Assembly: GCA_964371655.1 (NCBI GenBank)
Contig: CAYJOD010000001.1
Span: forward strand, 84,572-148,571
Direction of reading: 5' to 3'
DNA: 64,000 bases
Source: an uncultured Candidatus Binatia bacterium
GTDB lineage: Bacteria; Desulfobacterota; Binatia; HRBIN30
Positions within the stretch are counted from its first letter, which is position 1, and each line of letters opens with the position of its first letter. Positions 54,607 through 63,691 of the stretch are shown here, piece after piece. The position numbers and the translations under genes are program-made. The notes beneath the pieces were generated by a model. That model saw nothing but the letters and a program-made list of their open reading frames with translations. It made no database searches and had not been told where the DNA came from.

Positions 54607-55572
54607 ATGATTGCCAACCTTGAACTCTCGCTCCTCGACGAGGAGCCGAACCGCAGCAGTCGCGCCCTCGACCAATCGTCGCCAGCGCCCGAGACGATCC
54701 TGCGCTTTGCCCTCGCGGAGCGACTGCTGCACTGGGCGATCGCGATCCCGTTTCTCGGTTGCCTCCTCAGCGCCGTGGTATTGATCGTCGTCTACAATCC
54801 CGATCCCACGCGTGCCTACCGCTCGCTCTTTGCCTGGGTGCACCGCGGCTGCGCCGTGGGTTTGCTGGTGTGCCCGAGCCTGGTCCTGCTCGCGAGCGTG
54901 CGCCACGCGCGGCTGTTCTTCTACAATTTCCGCCAGGGATGGGTGTGGAGGTTCGACGACATCAAGTGGCTCGTCTTGATGGGGCCGGCTACGCTGTTCA
55001 AGCGCATCACTTTGCCTGACCAGGGCAAGTTCAACGCTGCCGAGAAGCTCAACTTCATGATGGTGACGGTCTTTCCGTTTCTCTTTGCCGCAACCGGTCT
55101 CTTGATCTGGTTTCCCGACGCCAGCCAGCTCGGCGCTTTCACCCCATGGATCATCCACTGCGCCCTCGCCGCGCTCGCCATGCCCCTAGTCCTTGGTCAC
55201 ATGTTCATGGCCACGGTTAACCCCGACACTCGCGTCGGGTTGACGGGGATGATCAGCGGCTTCGTCAGCCGCGAATGGGCTGCACACCACTATGCTCGCT
55301 GGTTTCGCGAGCAGTTTCCCCATCTGGTTCATGAATGTGCCGACGAGAACCCCGAGCTGGCGCCGCAGCCGCTTGCACGCGCCACGGTCGACGCCGCAGT
55401 TGAGATTTACGGACCGCGCTTTATCGCTGACGAGACCGAGGATGACACATTCCCGGAGTACAACGACGACGAGAGAGAGATCATCACTGCCGCGTGCGCA
55501 GAAGATTCAGCAGATGCCCTGAGTTGTGAGGCCTCGTCGCCAGCTGGTGATGACGCGGCCCACAACTATTGA
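54607..55572 (+). CDS. Membrane b-type cytochrome, FdnI/cytochrome-b561 (PF01292-like) family, with acidic C-terminal tail
   Basis: ERLLHWAIAIPFL, FNAAEKLNFMMV, and His in later helices (IIHCALAALAMPLVLGHMF). 4-5 TM helices. ATG 54607. Confidence 0.7.
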   Translation: MIANLELSLLDEEPNRSSRALDQSSPAPETILRFALAERLLHWAIAIPFLGCLLSAVVLIVVYNPDPTRAYRSLFAWVHRGCAVGLLVCPSLVLLASVRHARLFFYNFRQGWVWRFDDIKWLVLMGPATLFKRITLPDQGKFNAAEKLNFMMVTVFPFLFAATGLLIWFPDASQLGAFTPWIIHCALAALAMPLVLGHMFMATVNPDTRVGLTGMISGFVSREWAAHHYARWFREQFPHLVHECADENPELAPQPLARATVDAAVEIYGPRFIADETEDDTFPEYNDDEREIITAACAEDSADALSCEASSPAGDDAAHNY

Positions 55573-56003: not shown

Positions 56004-57392
56004 GTGATGGCGGGCCGAAGCTTGTCCGCGGCACGAGCCATCTCCTATCTCGTCATGCTTGCGACCGCGCCAAGCCTGTGGGCAGCGCCGGCCGCCGTCG
56101 CCGCGTGGCCCGAGTCGCTGGTCATGCCTGGTGAGGTCGTGGAGAAGCACGCGCGCGTCGAGGCGGAGTGCATGAAGTGTCACGCTCCACTCAACAAGGC
56201 GGCACAGGATCCGCTCTGCCTCGACTGTCACAAAGACGTGGCCGCGGATCTGGCTCAGAAGCGCGGGTTCCATGGGCAGGAGCCTACCGTCGGTGGCCGG
56301 CGTTGCGGGACCTGTCACGCAGAGCATAAGGGCAGAAGCGCCAACATCCTGCCACTGAACCGAGAAACGTTTGATCATCGCCATACCGTCATGCCCCTGC
56401 GTGGCGAGCACACGAAAGTGCGCTGTGAAAACTGCCACCTCGCCGGCAAGCGCTATCGCGAGGCGTCACCACAGTGCAACGATTGCCACGCGCGCAAGGA
56501 CCCGCACCAGACCACCCTGGGAACGAGCTGCGATAGCTGCCATGCGCCGTCCGCTTGGAAGACGGTGCGTTTCGATCACGACACCGCGCCGTTCCGGCTG
56601 GAAGGGCGGCATCGTGAGACGCATTGCGACAGCTGCCACAAGACCAAGCTCTTCAAAGCTACGGCAACCGACTGCTGGTCGTGCCACGGACCGAAAGACA
56701 AGCATCGCGGCAGCTTTGGAAGTAACTGCCAGTCGTGCCACACACCGACGCGGAAGTGGTCGGCGACGGAGTTCGACCACGCGCACAAGACACAGTTCGT
56801 CTTGGTGAGCCGCCACGCCAGCACGGGTTGCGAGAAGTGTCACCGCGATGGCCTCGCCGCGAAGCTTACACCTACGGCATGCTTCGGCTGCCATGAGCGC
56901 AACGACGGCCACCACGGGCAGTACGGGCGCGCCTGCGAGACGTGCCACGTTCCGACCGACTGGAAGCGTCCGACGTTCGTGCACGACCGCGACACGCATT
57001 TCTCGCTGCGCGGGCGGCATAAAGAGAACCGCTGCGCCGACTGTCACCGTGGCAACCCGCGCGAGGAGCACCTCGATAAGAGCTGCATCACCTGTCATCG
57101 CAACGACGACGTTCATCACGGCCGGCAGGGGGCGCGTTGCGACAAGTGCCATGACGAGCGCGGCTGGAGTCGCGACGTGCTCGTCGATCATGACGCAACC
57201 AAGTTCCCATTGACGGGCGCGCACACGCGCGTCACCTGCATCGGCTGCCATCCATCCCCCGTCTTCAAGGGCGTCGCGCGCGAATGCGTGTCGTGTCACG
57301 AGCGCGACGGTGTCCAACGCTGCCGGCGCGGCCCCGAGTGCGAGCGCTGCCATGAGACATCCACCTTCCGTCTGGTGCGAGCCCCGCAATGA
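56004..57392 (+). CDS. 18-heme c-type cytochrome built from tandem cytochrome-c7-like triheme modules
   Basis: 18 CxxCH motifs counted. Recurrent module FDH..H...C.xCH....C.DCH...D.H.G..G..C..CH. Signal peptide AISYLVMLATAPSLWAAPA. Confidence 0.9.
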   Translation: MMAGRSLSAARAISYLVMLATAPSLWAAPAAVAAWPESLVMPGEVVEKHARVEAECMKCHAPLNKAAQDPLCLDCHKDVAADLAQKRGFHGQEPTVGGRRCGTCHAEHKGRSANILPLNRETFDHRHTVMPLRGEHTKVRCENCHLAGKRYREASPQCNDCHARKDPHQTTLGTSCDSCHAPSAWKTVRFDHDTAPFRLEGRHRETHCDSCHKTKLFKATATDCWSCHGPKDKHRGSFGSNCQSCHTPTRKWSATEFDHAHKTQFVLVSRHASTGCEKCHRDGLAAKLTPTACFGCHERNDGHHGQYGRACETCHVPTDWKRPTFVHDRDTHFSLRGRHKENRCADCHRGNPREEHLDKSCITCHRNDDVHHGRQGARCDKCHDERGWSRDVLVDHDATKFPLTGAHTRVTCIGCHPSPVFKGVARECVSCHERDGVQRCRRGPECERCHETSTFRLVRAPQ

Positions 57393-60142
57393 TGAACCAC
57401 GGGACAGAGGCGCGCGTCGCAGCCCACCACAGCGCGGTTCACACTGGGCGACGCCGGGTACCGCGCCCGCATGGGCACGTTCCGATTGCGCTGCTGTGCT
57501 TCGTCATCGCCCTTCCCGCTGCCGCCCTTGCCGTTTGCGGAGGAGGCGGGACATCGCGTCTTCCGCTTCCCGCGGTCACGCATTTGCGCAGCTACCGCGC
57601 CCCATTCAGCGTTCCGACACGAATGGCGGTCGATGCATCCGGGAACGTGTACGTCACCGACCCGGGACTCGGCCAGGTCATCGTGCGCGCCCCGAACGGG
57701 CGCATCATCTCGCGGGTCGGTGGTCTCGGACATCCAGTCAGCGTTGCGGTGGGCAGCGCCGGTCGCATCTACGTCGGCGATACGGCATCCGGCAGCGTCA
57801 CCGCGTTCAACGCAGAATGGCAGAAGCTCCTAGAGTTGGGGCGCGGCGCCGGCGAGTTTCTGCAGCCCAGCGACGTGGCCGTCGATGCGGCAACCGGCAA
57901 CCTTTACGTCGCCGACAGCGCGGCGCAGCTCGTCAAAGTTTACACGGCTGCCGGCACCTTCGTACGCAGCTTTGGCGGTCATGGGAGTGGCGACGGCCAG
58001 TTCGACTTCCCCGTCGGAGTCTTCGTCGACGCGGCGGCGCACCAGGTCTTGGTCGCAGATCAACTGAACTATCGCATTCAGATCTTCGACGTCGCGGGCA
58101 ACTTCCTGTCCTGCTTCGGGGCGCAGGGAAGCGGACCGGGCAATTTCAACCTGCCGCAAAGCGTGTCGAGCGACCGCGCCGGTCGCATCTACGTCGCCGA
58201 CTCCGTTGAAGGGCACATTCAGGTGCTCGACCGCAGCGGCGGATTCGCCGGCTACATTGGCGATTTCGGCGACGCTGCCGGGCAGCTGCGCATTCCCATC
58301 GGAATGGTCATCGATCCGTCCAACCGGTTATTCGTCGCCGCCGCGAACAACGCGCGCCTGGAGGTGTTTGGGTTGGACGCGTTCGCCGACCCCGAGACCA
58401 TCCTGCCCGCCGTGGTCCACCTGGAACCCGAGCTCATCGACAAGGCGGCCCCGGCGACCAACGTCGCGAGTTATATCGAAGTGCCCGGATATTCACTCGA
58501 CTCGGTTGTCTCCGGCAGCATTTCGGCCAACGGCATCTCGACCGCCACGGTTCCGATCTCGGTGGGCGATCACGACGGCAATGGCGACCCCGACCTGCGC
58601 GTCGAGTTTCCGCGTGCAGCGTTGCTGGCGACGCTACCACCCGACGGTGCCGCTACGGTGACTGTGACCGGCCGCCTCGGAACCAAGCAGTTCGAAGCCG
58701 CGGCCGTGCTCCACATCACCACTTGCGCAGCTGGAACCATCTGTTCGCTTGGCGTTGCGGAGCCACAGTGCAACGAGGCCGTCTGCATCGCTGCCGTCGG
58801 CTGCACCATACAGCGCAAACCCGACGGTACTCGATGCGAAGACGGAAACGCCTGCACGATCGACGACGTTTGCGGCGCCGGCGTCTGCGCCGGAGCAGGA
58901 TTGCCCTGCGACGACGGCAATGCGTGCACCGACGACAGCTGCGACCCCACCGGCGGCTGTGTGCACACGAACAATTCCGAGCCGTGCGATGATGCGAACG
59001 CCTGCACGTCCTTAGACAAGTGTGCGGGAGGAACCTGCGGTGGTACGTCGCTTGGCTGCGACGACGCTAACGTATGCACGGACGACACCTGCGACCCGGT
59101 GCATGGTTGTGCTCACACGAACAATGCCGAGCCTTGTGACGATGGCAACGCCTGCACCAGTGCGGACAGGTGTGCGGCAGGCGTCTGTGCCGGCGTAGCG
59201 ATTCGCTGCGATGGCGGGGATGTGTGCAGCAAGGGCAGCTGCGATCCGGCGCGTGGCTGTATCCACGCCTATACCAGCGCGTCCTGCAATGACGCCGATC
59301 CCGGCACCGTAGGCGACGCGTGCGACGGCGCCGGCAGCTGCGTCGGCACCGCGGTTACCGGGCGCTATGCGCTTCTGCGTTGGCCCCTGGACGCTTCCCG
59401 CCACGGCGCGCCGACCCGCATGCGCAAGGGCCTCATCCATGGCGACGTCTGCGCCGAGAGCCTCCGAGTAGGACCGCTCAGCCAGATTCAGGGAGACATG
59501 GTGGCCTGGGCTCGCGACGGCTGGGCTATTGAGTTCAGTGGTCAGAGTCAGATCGCCGGCAACGTGGTCACAGGCGGCGGGACAATCGTGGGGATCAACC
59601 CGGTGGCCGTCCGCGGCCGTGTCGACGTCTTTGGCCGCGGCACCGAGCTGGCGCAATGCTTCGCGGCTCGTTATCGCGCCACACAGCGCCGAGGCGACTT
59701 CGGCGCCCTTCCCCCGACGCCCGGTTTCGCGCTGGGACTAATTCAGCTGAATCCGGGAGGCAATCAGCGCCTTCCGTCCACCGGAGAATTCGCGAGTGGA
59801 CAGACGGTGATCGAGATCACCGAGCTGCGTCTGGATTCATCGAGCACGCTGACGCTGGCGGGGACGCCGGCCACGGGAGCGGTGATCGTCCACATCCGCA
59901 ACCGGATGTTGGTCGGACGTGGCGCGCGCATCGCTCTCGATGGGTTGGCGCCCGAGCGGCTGCTTTTCGTAATCGACGGATCGGTCATCCTGAGGCCACA
60001 AGCGAGCGTCGTCGGCTCGGTGTTCGCGGCGAAGCGCGTGCACATGGGCAGCGCCAGCGCCATCACCGGGGCACTGCTCGGCAGTGTCATCCATCTGTCC
60101 CCATCCGCCACCATAGACCTTCACCCGTTCGTGGGATGGTAA
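57389..60142 (+). CDS. NHL-repeat beta-propeller protein fused to Ig-like, tandem Cys-rich (CxDGNxCTxDxC) and C-terminal beta-solenoid-like regions; possible lipoprotein
   Basis: Six NHL-like blades (e.g. GQFDFPVGVFVD, GNFNLPQSVSSDRAGRIYVADS, GQLRIPIGMVID) at residues about 75-328. Cys-rich repeats at residues about 446-651. C-terminal 260 aa resembles DUF3494/choice-of-anchor solenoids. AALAVCGG near the N-terminus. ATGA overlap with the 18-heme gene. Confidence 0.85.
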   Translation: MMNHGTEARVAAHHSAVHTGRRRVPRPHGHVPIALLCFVIALPAAALAVCGGGGTSRLPLPAVTHLRSYRAPFSVPTRMAVDASGNVYVTDPGLGQVIVRAPNGRIISRVGGLGHPVSVAVGSAGRIYVGDTASGSVTAFNAEWQKLLELGRGAGEFLQPSDVAVDAATGNLYVADSAAQLVKVYTAAGTFVRSFGGHGSGDGQFDFPVGVFVDAAAHQVLVADQLNYRIQIFDVAGNFLSCFGAQGSGPGNFNLPQSVSSDRAGRIYVADSVEGHIQVLDRSGGFAGYIGDFGDAAGQLRIPIGMVIDPSNRLFVAAANNARLEVFGLDAFADPETILPAVVHLEPELIDKAAPATNVASYIEVPGYSLDSVVSGSISANGISTATVPISVGDHDGNGDPDLRVEFPRAALLATLPPDGAATVTVTGRLGTKQFEAAAVLHITTCAAGTICSLGVAEPQCNEAVCIAAVGCTIQRKPDGTRCEDGNACTIDDVCGAGVCAGAGLPCDDGNACTDDSCDPTGGCVHTNNSEPCDDANACTSLDKCAGGTCGGTSLGCDDANVCTDDTCDPVHGCAHTNNAEPCDDGNACTSADRCAAGVCAGVAIRCDGGDVCSKGSCDPARGCIHAYTSASCNDADPGTVGDACDGAGSCVGTAVTGRYALLRWPLDASRHGAPTRMRKGLIHGDVCAESLRVGPLSQIQGDMVAWARDGWAIEFSGQSQIAGNVVTGGGTIVGINPVAVRGRVDVFGRGTELAQCFAARYRATQRRGDFGALPPTPGFALGLIQLNPGGNQRLPSTGEFASGQTVIEITELRLDSSSTLTLAGTPATGAVIVHIRNRMLVGRGARIALDGLAPERLLFVIDGSVILRPQASVVGSVFAAKRVHMGSASAITGALLGSVIHLSPSATIDLHPFVGW

Positions 60143-60150
60143 GGCCGCCA

Positions 60151-61536
60151 ATGAAGCGAAGGCGAATACCCGATTGGTGGCTGTGTCTGGCGTTGGCGTG
60201 CATCGCCAGCGCTGCAGCCCAGGCACTCGACCCGCCCCACGACGCGAGCAAGTCGATCGATTGCGCCAACTGCCACATCACGCACCACGCCCCCGGTGGC
60301 GCAATCACCACGGTTGGCGGGAATCCGAACCTGTGCATCAGCTGCCATACCGCGGGCGGGCTGGCGTCCGCCAAACCATTTGCCAACAGCGACGAAGCGA
60401 TCCCAGGAACCAGCGGCACCTCGCATCGGTGGGACTCCGGCGTGGCGGGTTGGGTCAAGACGAATTCCGCGAACACCTCGCCAGGCACCGTGCAGTCGGG
60501 AGGCAGTTTCACCGGGCGTTACCGCAAGGCGTACACGATCACCATCAGCAGCGCCGGTGATGCAGGCACGGCGCTGTTCAATTGGACCACGTCCAATCTC
60601 GTCGGCCTGACGTACGTGGATGCGTTTGCGGCCATCGCCTACAACGGCAGCAGCGGGACGCAGGCGTGGACCGCGAGCCCCTGGCAGGAGATCGTCGAGG
60701 CCGACGGGCCGGCCGCGGGCTTCGTCCAAGTGGTGGCCAACGTCGCCTGTGCCAGCGGCGATTGCCTGCGGATCGGCGGCGGAACGATCGATACGCGCGG
60801 GTTGCAACGCCCGGCGAACGTAAGCGGCGCCACGGCGGCCACGCTGACCTTCAGCTACCGCCGGCAGCTGGCCACATGTCCGAACACCAGCACCGCCAAC
60901 GTCGCTCTCCAAGTCAGCAGTAACGGAACGACCTGGGCTACACTCGCTACCTACAATTTGAACAATTGCGATGCCGTCCCGGTCGCGCAGGTCTTCGACC
61001 TCACCCCTTACATCGCCGCCGCCACGCGGATCCGCTTTGTCGGCGTCGGCACCACCGCTGCCACCGATTTCAGCTACATCGACAATGTCCAGATTCAATA
61101 CGTGGTCTCCGGTCGTGGGGCCACGAACGTCACCTCCGGCGCCAGCGTGGGCCTGGATGAAGGTATCACCGTCACCTTCAACAGTGGGACGCCGTCGCCG
61201 TCGTTCAGGCTGAACGATCAATGGACCGTTTTCGCTAGCGCCGATATCAACCAGCCGACCACGCCCGCCTTGGCGGCGCGCATGACTGGCGGCGTCGCGA
61301 CGTGCTCGACGTGTCACAACGAACACAGCCAAGTGGGTGAGCCCTTCGATCTTGCCGCCCCCGCGTATCCGGTGCCGGGACCCGGCGGGGTCGGACGCCA
61401 TTACCAGCGCACCGACGACGACATCAATCAGATGTGCGCCGATTGCCACAGCACCCGTAAGGTGACGGCGTCTTCACAGGGATCCCACCCGGTCGGCGTC
61501 GTGATCCCCAGCATTGGTCCGTTCAAGAATCCCTAG
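60151..61536 (+). CDS. Secreted tetraheme cytochrome c with large non-heme insert domain
   Basis: Signal peptide [45 protein letters not shown] (CxxCHxxH style). Insert at residues about 155-317 is shared with the next protein. Confidence 0.85.
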
Positions 61537-61543
61537 GTTCACA

Positions 61544-63691
61544 ATGAAACGGATCATCCTGCTCCTTGGTTTCTGTTGTACGGCGGTGGCACCGCAGATG
61601 GTCGGTGTCGCGGCGGCGCAGAGCACCTACCGCGACAACTTCAACTCGGCCGTCTACAGCGGCTCGAACGGTACAGCGAGCTGGACGAGCTCGCCCTGGG
61701 TCGAAAGCGACGACGCGGGCGGAGGTGCGACGGGTGGAAACATCTTCGTCGTTACCGCGAGCGGCTGCCCGCAAGGGACCTGCCTGAACGTCAGCGCGGT
61801 CGATGTTCCTGACCAGATCTACCGACAGGCCGATCTCAGCGCCGCCACGGCGGCTACGCTTACCTACACGTACTGCCACGACAGCGCACCCGGTTCTGTC
61901 GTCGCGGAGATTTCCTACAACGGCGGCAGCAACTGGACGACGGTTGCCACCTACTCGAGCCAGAGCACGTGCCCGAGCACGCAGAGCTTCACACTCACCC
62001 AGTTCACCAGCAACACGCGGCTGCGCTTCCGCGTCACGGCGACCGGTGGCGCGATCCTCTACGTCGATCAGGTACAGTTCGCCTTTTCCACGGGAGCGGT
62101 CGTGTCGCCGACCGCGACTCTGACCAGAACGCCCTCGGCGACGACTACGCCCACTCTCACGGCGACGCGAACGCCAACCACTCCGTCGACGCCGACGCCG
62201 ACGAATACTCCCACGAGAACCGCAACCAACACCCCGACAGGGCCGACCGGCACGCCGACGCGCACGCCAACGATTACCCAGACAGCGACAATTACCCAGA
62301 CGTTCACGATCACGCGGACGCCTACGGTGACCAACACGCCGACCCGAACGCCGACGGGACCCACGGCGACGATCACCGCGACAGCAACGATCACTCCGAT
62401 TCCGAACGCGTTCCCCCTGCCGCTCGACAAGAAGACGGCCGCGGTCCGGTGCATGACGTGCCACAACGTGCACTACCAGGGAGCCGGCGCCGGCATGCTG
62501 CTGCGCAGCGGGAACACGAACGCCCTGTGCACCGACTGCCACACCCTGGCCGACACCACGACACCGGCAGCGCATCTCAACGCCTCGACAGGCGCGTTGT
62601 GGCCCGGCCCGAAATACGGAACGCTTTTCCCGGCTATCACCGACACGACCCAGCGTGGCGCGTGCTCCAACTGTCACCGCTCACATGGGTGGCCGGATGA
62701 GGGCAATCCCGGCCAGGACTATCCAACCCTGCTGGTCAATCGCGAGGAGAACCTCTGCTACACGTGCCACGACGGTACCGTGACGCCGAAGAACCTGCTG
62801 GTTCAATTCACGAAGAGCTACCGCCATCCGGTACCGGACTACAGCGGCCGTCACAGCACGAGCGAAGATGGAGCTCCGTCCGCCTACGGCACCGCGAATC
62901 GTCACTCCGAGTGTGCCGACTGTCACAACCCTCATCTAGTCAATGCCGATGCGACCGCTCCGAGCGCCCCCACGGCCTCGAACCGGATCCGTGGCGTCAG
63001 CCGGATTGCCGTGGCCAATGGCGCGGCGGGGACGGTCCCGACGTACACCTACCGTGGACCCAACGACGCCACCGCCCCGATCACCGAATACCAGCTGTGC
63101 TTCAAGTGCCACTCGTCGTGGACGACGCAGCCCGCGGGCCAGTCGAACACCGCCGTGCAGTTCAACAGCAACAACCGCTCCTACCATCCCGTCGAAGCAC
63201 AGGGGAAGAACACCAACATCAACGTCAACTCATTTGCGAACGGGTGGACGGGGACCAGCGCCATGTACTGTAGCGACTGTCACAGCGGAGATGACGCAAC
63301 TGTCCGCGGCGCGCATGGGTCGCAATACCGGTACATCCTCAAGCAGGCGTCGATTGCCAGCAGCAGCAGCCGGACCACAGCCTCCACCGAGCTGTGCTTC
63401 AATTGCCACTCGTACAACACCTACGCCAACACCGGCGCCACCACGACCCAGGAAAACTACAGTCGCTGGTCTTCGGCCGGCAGCCAAGACAACGGACACA
63501 CGGCGCACGTGGTCAACCATCGAGCCCCCTGTTACGCGTGCCACGCCTCGCACGGTGTGGCCACGCAGCCGCACTTGATCGTCACCGGCCGCAGCCCGGG
63601 CATCAACACCTACACGGAAACAACCAACGGTGGGACCTGCTCCCCCACCTGCCACGGCACAGAGAGTTACACGATCACCTATGCGCGTTGA
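61544..63691 (+). CDS. Secreted multiheme cytochrome c (9 CxxCH + 1 CxxxCH) with N-terminal non-heme domain and Thr/Pro linker
   Basis: Signal peptide [27 protein letters not shown]. Shared domain at residues 29-181. T/P-rich linker at about 186-283. Heme motifs CMTCH, CTDCH, CSNCH, CYTCH, CADCH, CFKCH, CSDCH, CFNCH, CYACH, CSPTCH. Confidence 0.85.

Follow-up and report, generated by a model that had tools for sequence, protein, structure and literature searches.

The window, that is, the whole 64-kb stretch of DNA analysed here, comes from a Candidatus Binatia-like bacterium of sediment metagenomes and carries two adjacent genes for secreted multihaem cytochromes, hereafter abbreviated as pA and pB, each of which contains a copy of the same non-haem domain. 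The results of our analysis identify this domain, on the evidence of sequence and of a structural model, as an autonomous β-jelly-roll of about 160 residues belonging to the galactose-binding-domain-like, Reelin-subrepeat-B lineage. The two genes evidently encode the 4-haem and 9-haem halves of a 13-haem cytochrome of about 715 amino acids (aa), which normally is the product of one gene without the module, and the three separate clades of the cytochrome-borne copies imply that this single family captured the module independently at least three times, using the same loop on two of these occasions. We consider it fairly probable (about 0.6) that the jelly-roll is a non-catalytic binding or anchoring module, which would hold or orient an outward-facing haem chain against an insoluble partner.

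What enables outer-surface cytochromes to recognise insoluble electron acceptors or donors, and to maintain contact with them, is poorly understood. The domain described here is ordinary; its recurrent grafting onto one cytochrome family, with what looks like a shared hot spot, is an unexpected lead on how such partners may be engaged. Thousands of large bacterial surface proteins contain this domain as a stretch that receives no label in standard annotation, and the analysis assigns it both a fold and a family. It also shows that, in Binatia-like genomes, a pair of neighbouring 'cytochrome c3 family' genes derives from a single ancestral 13-haem protein, of which each gene encodes one half.

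The shared jelly-roll domain and its relatives

Composition-adjusted BLASTP aligns nucleotides 60613-61101 of pA with 61628-62086 of pB over the full length of both segments (36% identity, 53% positives, E=9e-16). The similarity that an earlier note on this DNA had seen by eye therefore keeps its significance under a statistical alignment, and the list of open reading frames (ORFs) and a motif scan agree with the coordinates and reading frames given there for both cytochromes. A hidden Markov model (HMM) of the family sets the borders listed in table 1 and detects no third copy of the domain in the window; the pB copy is 79% identical to that of P0067, a 9-haem orthologue. Ala, Thr, Ser and Gly are abundant in both segments, and the G+C content of the genome is about 65%, conditions under which a compositional or chance resemblance without any true common domain might arise. 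The probability of such an explanation is negligible, since it is refuted by the BLASTP result, by HMM matches with E values of 1e-48 to 1e-56, by the thousands of homologues with sharp domain borders that emerge from an exhaustive profile search and by the confident fold obtained with AlphaFold2 (AF2).

In an alignment of 300 copies of the domain, residues D3, F5, G15, W19, W24, E26, G36, R66, A76, L78, S102, G105, R141 and D157 are nearly invariant, and the motifs quoted in the earlier note coincide with conserved positions of the family, namely D3, F5, G15, W19, W24, E26, R66, R141, D157 and the Asp-box. The latter has the family consensus S-x-D-G-G-x-x-W (S102 in 89% and G105 in 86% of the copies) and aligns with the Asp-box of reelin subrepeats, so that the hairpin expected of a reelin-type jelly-roll (S-x-D-x-G-x-x-W) is present. 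The Asp-box is a known element of the reelin jelly-roll subrepeats (PMC2716378). In pA it is degenerate and one residue short (table 1), while pB has S-Y-N-G-G-S-N-W, with Asn replacing Asp. The acidic trio D3, E26 and D157, conserved in 97-99% of the family copies, may hold a structural Ca2+ ion. A C-x4-C pair, probably forming a disulphide hairpin, occupies the same columns in 90 of the 300 copies, those of pA and pB among them.

A second pair of cysteines is found at residues 243 and 273 of pA (60877-60879 and 60967-60969) and 111 and 143 of pB (61874-61876 and 61970-61972), and is rare, being present in fewer than 10 of the 300 copies. It occurs in the jelly-rolls of pA type (pA and the loci L012 and L013) and of pB type (pB and P0067) of the Binatia-like lineage, which lie in different clades, and is absent from the copies of loci L004 and L036. 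Its occurrence in two clades could be due to convergence or to partial gene conversion; the jelly-roll probably has one or two disulphides.

A profile of 51 family sequences (A3) was used both for structure prediction and for a profile search of the PDB. The resulting AF2 model of the pA domain is all-β with ten strands and has a predicted local distance difference test score (pLDDT) of 96.4 and a predicted template modelling score (pTM) of 0.91; a model built on a 5-sequence alignment reached a pLDDT of 61 and was discarded. Comparison of the model with the PDB by Foldseek places reelin structures (5B4X, 2E26, 2DDU and 3A7Q) at ranks 1-3, 8 and 9, with probability 1.00, a query-based template modelling score (TMq) of 0.62-0.70 (0.64-0.70 for the leading 5B4X, 2E26 and 2DDU) and about 21% identity. 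These are followed by the jelly-rolls of carbohydrate-binding modules (CBMs) of families CBM16, CBM61, CBM4 and CBM22 (E of about 1e-6 to 1e-5, TM of about 0.5-0.6). The A3 profile matches the reelin chains 3A7Q/2E26 with E=6.4e-12, covering all four subrepeats of the crystallised fragment, a result that supersedes the value of 0.011 obtained for reelin with a shallow alignment. The earlier suggestion of one homologous, autonomous module in both proteins, with a β-sandwich or jelly-roll fold of CBM-like type, is thereby borne out.

Reelin subrepeat B (PF21471; 2E26, 3A7Q, 5B4X and 2DDU) is the best structural match of the domain, a jelly-roll of similar size with an Asp-box hairpin. The proteins of the window differ from reelin in being bacterial, in having no epidermal growth factor (EGF) domain, no paired subrepeats and no A-EGF-B organisation, and in carrying single copies, whereas their relatives have plain tandem arrays; moreover, the N-terminal segment 'DxF...DG..W...W.E' is specific to the bacterial family. 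The functions of reelin in receptor binding and rod formation are not transferable to the cytochrome modules.

The size of the family was estimated by searching 1.84 billion representative proteins exhaustively with a five-sequence profile, which matched 3,877 proteins at E<=1e-3 (2,274 at <=1e-10 and 463 at <=1e-30), so that the family has at least 3,877 members. Word-indexed searches with each excised domain had returned just two matches each, which reflects a limit of the method and not rarity. In the best 150 matches plus four proteins found earlier, the local HMM recognises 372 copies of the domain, about 300 of them full length with sharp borders; they usually stand in tandem, 2-11 to a protein, and the largest protein has 4,231 aa. 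Pfam scanning of 59 relatives found Reelin_subrepeat-B in 41 (best E=5.4e-19; 45.5 bits in P0005), Peptidase_S8 in 20, InhA-like_MAM in 18, CBM96 (as a separate domain) and the Disaggregatase repeat in 7 each, DUF6701 in 6 and Laminin_G_3 in 3, together with assorted Ig-like domains; the haem motif Paired_CXXCH_1 appears in one of the 59. Among the best 150 matches only P0067, an orthologue of pB, is a cytochrome, and it is the sole one with two or more CXXCH motifs. Given these partners, the module is best described as an accessory domain that is widespread in secreted or surface proteins, among them subtilases, InhA-like proteases and adhesin-like proteins; it is therefore not cytochrome-specific, and the idea that it might be special to multihaem cytochromes has to be abandoned. 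The InhA-like MAM domain (PF20773) and the accessory domains of subtilases resemble it as non-catalytic extracellular additions, but neither pA nor pB gives a match to PF20773.

These data also qualify the description of the domain as unassigned. It stands insofar as both copies fall below the PF21471 gathering score of 27 bits (pA, 15.8 bits, E=0.012; pB, 17.5 bits, E=0.0036), as do the copies of locus L004 (23.1 bits), and no NCBIfam model covers the region; it does not stand for the large family, which is clearly related to Reelin_subrepeat-B by its Pfam matches and by the reelin profile match. Beside Reelin_subrepeat-B, the domains of pA and pB show a sub-threshold Pfam match to F5/8-type-C.

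A divided 13-haem cytochrome and repeated capture of the module

The haem-binding motifs CXXCH lie at residues 38, 62, 385 and 429 of pA and at residues 303, 329, 374, 405, 457, 519, 576, 618 and 663 of pB, which has an additional CX3CH site (CSPTCH) at residue 699; both proteins begin with signal-peptide-like sequences ending, by eye, in AQA/AAQ. A search with full-length pA retrieved 19 full-length orthologues of 459-467 aa (57-100% identity), some labelled Candidatus Binatia; each of the 19 is a four-haem protein in which the domain occupies an unchanged position. The same search also brought up about 100 larger proteins (640-800 aa), which have 13 CXXCH motifs but lack the jelly-roll. One of these unsplit proteins, P0173, matches residues 18-156 and 320-461 of pA with its residues 18-156 and 149-289 (65-70% identity), the two blocks being contiguous in P0173, and residues 292-715 of pB with its residues 292-714 (66% identity, E=0). 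It is because the two blocks of pA and the haem part of pB are colinear with P0173 that we regard the two genes as the parts of one divided cytochrome; the CXXCH columns are invariant in the alignment of the 13-haem family (A5). At the junction, pA ends in a stop codon that is followed by a 7-nt spacer and by the own start codon and signal peptide of pB, and the split is kept in other assemblies and a related metagenome-assembled genome (MAG) (L001 and L006-L008) as well as in L013. A frameshifted pseudogene of a 13-haem gene is ruled out by the clean stop, the spacer, the signal peptide and the conservation across several assemblies and among the orthologues.

The 13-haem family is represented by at least 577 loci in species-representative genomes, distributed among Verrucomicrobiota, Eisenbacteria, Acidobacteriota, Gammaproteobacteria, Myxococcota, Nitrospirota, Calditrichota, Planctomycetota and others. 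The cultured Aromatoleum tolulyticum ATCC 51758 (L091, NZ_FTMD01000026.1) has a member with 32% identity to the haem part of pB, which is a possible experimental entry point. Sequence searches of the PDB with full-length pA and pB returned no solved relatives of the haem parts; in Pfam these show a weak, sub-threshold similarity to domains II/IV of MtrC/MtrF (PF22113).

The alignments place the pA module between haems 2 and 3, where it sits in a loop belonging to a small non-haem subdomain, and domain-free homologues align contiguously over the insertion point, in agreement with the earlier view that the domain is inserted between haem pairs. The description of the pB copy as N-terminal and followed by a Thr/Pro linker was likewise right (table 1). 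A repeat check of the DNA excludes that this linker is a tandem-repeat artefact. In pA, L012, L013 and L036 the module interrupts exactly one loop, whose insert-free form is ...F-x-W-T-x-T-(P)-G-G-(G)-S-G....

Several architectures of the family can be distinguished. Most common is the unsplit gene without the module (type i), found in 77 of the 80 best genome loci, while unsplit genes with the module nested between haems 2 and 3 (type ii) occur in L012, from a Deltaproteobacteria/Binatia-like MAG, and L036, from a Gammaproteobacteria MAG (CAMYNX010000220.1, ORF from 2808). Split genes have the module in pA only in L013, the 9-haem half beginning right after the signal peptide (type iii); a nested module in pA together with an N-terminal module on a Thr/Pro linker in pB in the window, L001 and L006-L008 (type iv); and, in L004 and L005, a C-terminal module on a Thr/Pro linker in the 4-haem half combined with two N-terminal modules and a linker in the 9-haem half (type v). 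Finally, in L009 and L010 the 4-haem half lacks the module and the next gene starts with a different one (type vi). The latter gene (4438-5253 of L009, and equally in L010) encodes a signal peptide, a β-rich module of about 190 aa without a Pfam match and a Thr/Pro/Ser linker, and looks like a swap at the position of the pB jelly-roll. One family thus offers a natural series with no module, one nested copy, one to three linker-tethered copies or a different module, and this series can be used as it stands, in comparisons and in experiments, to ask whether extracellular electron transfer is tuned by accessory binding domains.

The cytochrome-borne copies do not group together. The pA copy finds its best matches in non-cytochrome copies (45-49% identity), the pB copy ranking only 201st, whereas pB, P0067 and the three copies of L004 are mutual best matches; the L036 copy is 26% identical to that of pA and 53% identical to P0117, a non-cytochrome copy. 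In a neighbour-joining (NJ) tree of 300 copies, which includes copies from the top 150 hits only and carries no support values, the cytochrome-borne domains fall into three separate clades. It is on these BLAST ranks and clades that the estimate of three or more independent captures is based, and on them we reject a single ancient insertion behind all cytochrome-borne copies. The presence of L036 and pA copies, from different clades, in the same loop looks like the mark of an insertion hot spot.

In the literature searched we found nothing relevant on jelly-roll, CBM or reelin-like domains in multihaem cytochromes. No description seems to exist there of the fusion of module and cytochrome, of the placement of the module between pairs of haems, of the division of the 13-haem gene or of the repeated captures; the jelly-roll fold and its sequence lineage are already known, as are multihaem cytochromes with interleaved non-haem β domains, such as MtrC and OmcA.

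What the module may do

In the reading that we favour, the jelly-roll has been added to both products of the split 13-haem gene in the Binatia-like bacterium. The 13-haem protein presumably faces outward, as its cluster content, its Thr/Pro linkers and the company of the module elsewhere suggest, with the pA copy placed at the surface, in the loop that separates haems 2 and 3, and the pB copy hanging on its long linker. The module would then bind an insoluble partner, which may be a cell-surface or matrix polysaccharide, a mineral surface, humic material or a surface protein, and binding would position the haem chain much as a CBM with its linker targets a cellulase. The analogy with jelly-roll CBMs on Thr/Pro linkers lies in the fold class and in the order of module, Thr/Pro linker and functional domain that is seen in pB and L004; it differs in that the partner here is a haem wire instead of a glycoside hydrolase, the likeness remaining at the level of the fold. 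A substrate- or mineral-binding role, as proposed in the earlier note, can reasonably be inferred, and the inference is strengthened by the repeated independent recruitment of the module to this cytochrome family. Tentatively, and by analogy, one may go further and propose that the jelly-roll targets the substrate in extracellular electron transfer, with selection driving the three or more captures and the two insertions at the loop hot spot; this is possible, though we would not bet on it. If it were true, the module would be the cytochrome equivalent of the CBM on a cellulase, and by binding a mineral surface or a humic or matrix polymer it would set what the haem wire touches.

Several points weigh against this reading or limit it. 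The likeness to CBMs, at 12-18% identity, is confined to the fold, and the CBM families of Pfam give no match to pA or pB. A search of sequencing runs found no RNA-seq runs containing the locus. Furthermore, the Asp-box jelly-rolls of reelin serve chiefly to form contacts between modules, not to bind small ligands (PMC2716378), and a structural or assembly role is for this reason equally compatible with the fold.

One form of such a role is docking: the jelly-rolls would join the split halves to each other, or to the NHL propeller or porin of the cluster, and so re-form one wire of 4+9 haems. Both halves do carry the module in the window and in L004, contacts between modules are what the Asp-box jelly-rolls mediate in reelin (PMC2716378), and an NHL protein is the invariant neighbour. 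Yet the module is also inserted in the unsplit 13-haem proteins of L012 and L036, while the split L013 has a 9-haem half and the split L009 a 4-haem half without it; the copies in pA and pB belong to separate clades, and a flexible linker of about 100 residues is poorly suited to aligning haem chains. We therefore regard docking as unlikely. Another structural role would be that of a spacer or stalk, in which module and Thr/Pro linker have no specific ligand and only lengthen or stiffen the protein, carrying the haems out past the outer membrane or matrix. The long linker of pB, the tandem arrays of up to 11 copies in giant surface proteins and the rods that reelin repeats form via Asp-box contacts (PMC2716378) would fit this explanation, but the single nested copies of pA, L012 and L036 add no length along the haem chain. 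Repeated independent acquisition of one type of module, twice at the same loop, argues instead for a specific benefit, and the invariant, surface-type W19, W24, E26 and R66 look like a conserved site and not a mere scaffold; a simple spacer seems to us quite improbable.

A further comparison can be made with MtrC and OmcA, outer-surface decahaem cytochromes with interleaved non-haem β-barrel domains, of which domains I/III have been proposed to bind soluble redox mediators. In common with these proteins, pA has a non-haem β domain between haem-binding parts, a presumed outer-surface location and a place in an electron-transfer cluster. The domain of MtrC and OmcA is a split β-barrel, however, in contrast to the jelly-roll found here; homology of the haem parts is not demonstrable from the sub-threshold PF22113 match, and the module of the 13-haem family is optional and recently grafted, most members being without it. 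The comparison raises the possibility that the jelly-roll is a cofactor or shuttle site, binding a soluble mediator such as a flavin, quinone or humic compound beside the haems. The pA copy lies directly between two haem pairs, its C-x4-C and rare second cysteine pair recall the redox-sensitive disulphide of MtrC domain III, and the weak Pfam similarity of the haem parts to MtrC/MtrF points in the same direction. Apart from the different fold, this is weakened by the copies of pB type, which sit on long flexible linkers far from the haems, by the L036 copy, which has no cysteine at all, and by the occurrence of most family members in non-redox proteins, so that a shuttle site is very improbable. 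A binding or anchoring module that engages an insoluble partner remains our preferred interpretation.

The surrounding gene cluster

Table 1. Features of the pA/pB locus (positions in the window unless a locus is named)
Feature	Position	Strand or place	Description and basis
Membrane cytochrome b (Ni_hydr_CYTB family)	54607-55572	+	Pfam PF01292, E=5.8e-14; gene call in L006
18-haem cytochrome	56007-57392	+	461 aa, c7/c3-type repeats; 18 CXXCH
NHL-repeat β-propeller	57389-60142	+	917 aa, Cys-rich Dicty_CTDC repeats, ice-binding-like C-terminus; Pfam
pA, secreted tetrahaem cytochrome with nested jelly-roll	60151-61536	+	461 aa; ORF and CXXCH motifs
pA jelly-roll (Reelin-subrepeat-B-like)	60607-61101	+	Residues 153-317; family HMM envelope, E=6.6e-56
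pA C-x4-C pair, CASGDC	60748-60765	+	Family cysteine columns
pA degenerate Asp-box, S-S-N-G-T-T-W	60916-60936	+	Aligned to family consensus
pB, secreted cytochrome	61544-63691	+	715 aa; signal peptide, jelly-roll, Thr/Pro linker, 9-haem module
pB jelly-roll, N-terminal	61622-62086	+	Residues 27-181; family HMM, E=9.8e-48
pB Thr/Pro-rich linker	62096-62413	+	Residues 185-290; 106 residues with 47 Thr (44%) and 18 Pro (17%)
pB nine-haem module	62417-63688	+	CXXCH motifs; Pfam Paired_CXXCH_1, E=1.8e-20; colinear with 13-haem family
Predicted outer-membrane barrel	L006 17967-19979	~4.4 kb past window end	670 aa; signal peptide, C-terminal ...RHFF

The genes around pA and pB (table 1) form a putative extracellular-electron-transfer cluster, and the gene order is the same around unsplit P0173. 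Upstream of pA, the membrane cytochrome b is a likely link to the quinone pool. The 18-haem cytochrome is very dense in CXXCH motifs, and a 4-nt overlap between its stop and the NHL start codon points to translational coupling; the ice-binding-like (β-solenoid) match at the C-terminus of the 917-aa NHL protein is weak. A homologue of this NHL protein is the immediate upstream neighbour of the 13-haem gene, or of its 4-haem half, wherever the upstream gene is present, that is, in L001, L002, L003, L004, L009 and L013. A longer contig of the same organism (L006) extends the picture downstream, with an NHL protein and 4-haem, trihaem c7 and 9-haem cytochromes followed by the 670-aa signal-peptide protein and then by another NHL protein, so that the cluster comprises cytochromes of 4, 3, 9 and 18 haems and three NHL proteins. 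The 670-aa protein has no match in Pfam, has homologues of 649 aa in L002 and L003 and is likely to be a novel outer-membrane barrel of the cluster.

In its content the locus resembles the Uet cluster of 'Ca. Tenderia electrophaga', which has been proposed to function in electron uptake (bioRxiv 10.1101/2022.05.06.490989; PMC10734462), and other porin-cytochrome clusters. Shared elements are a tetrahaem and a large multihaem cytochrome, a trihaem c7, at least two NHL proteins and an outer-membrane barrel, which in this locus is a predicted one; the likeness is one of gene content alone, the cytochrome b and the 18-haem protein of the window setting it apart, and no jelly-roll has been reported for Uet.

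Opposite pA and pB, the minus strand has ORFs at 60121-61449 and 61523-62677 (442 and 384 aa), which are rich in Arg and Gly, as spurious ORFs in high-G+C DNA typically are, and have no homology support. The first ~12 kb of the window have a G+C content of 0.52-0.58, compared with 0.60-0.67 over positions 12001-64000, and could be a horizontally acquired segment or reflect an assembly join.

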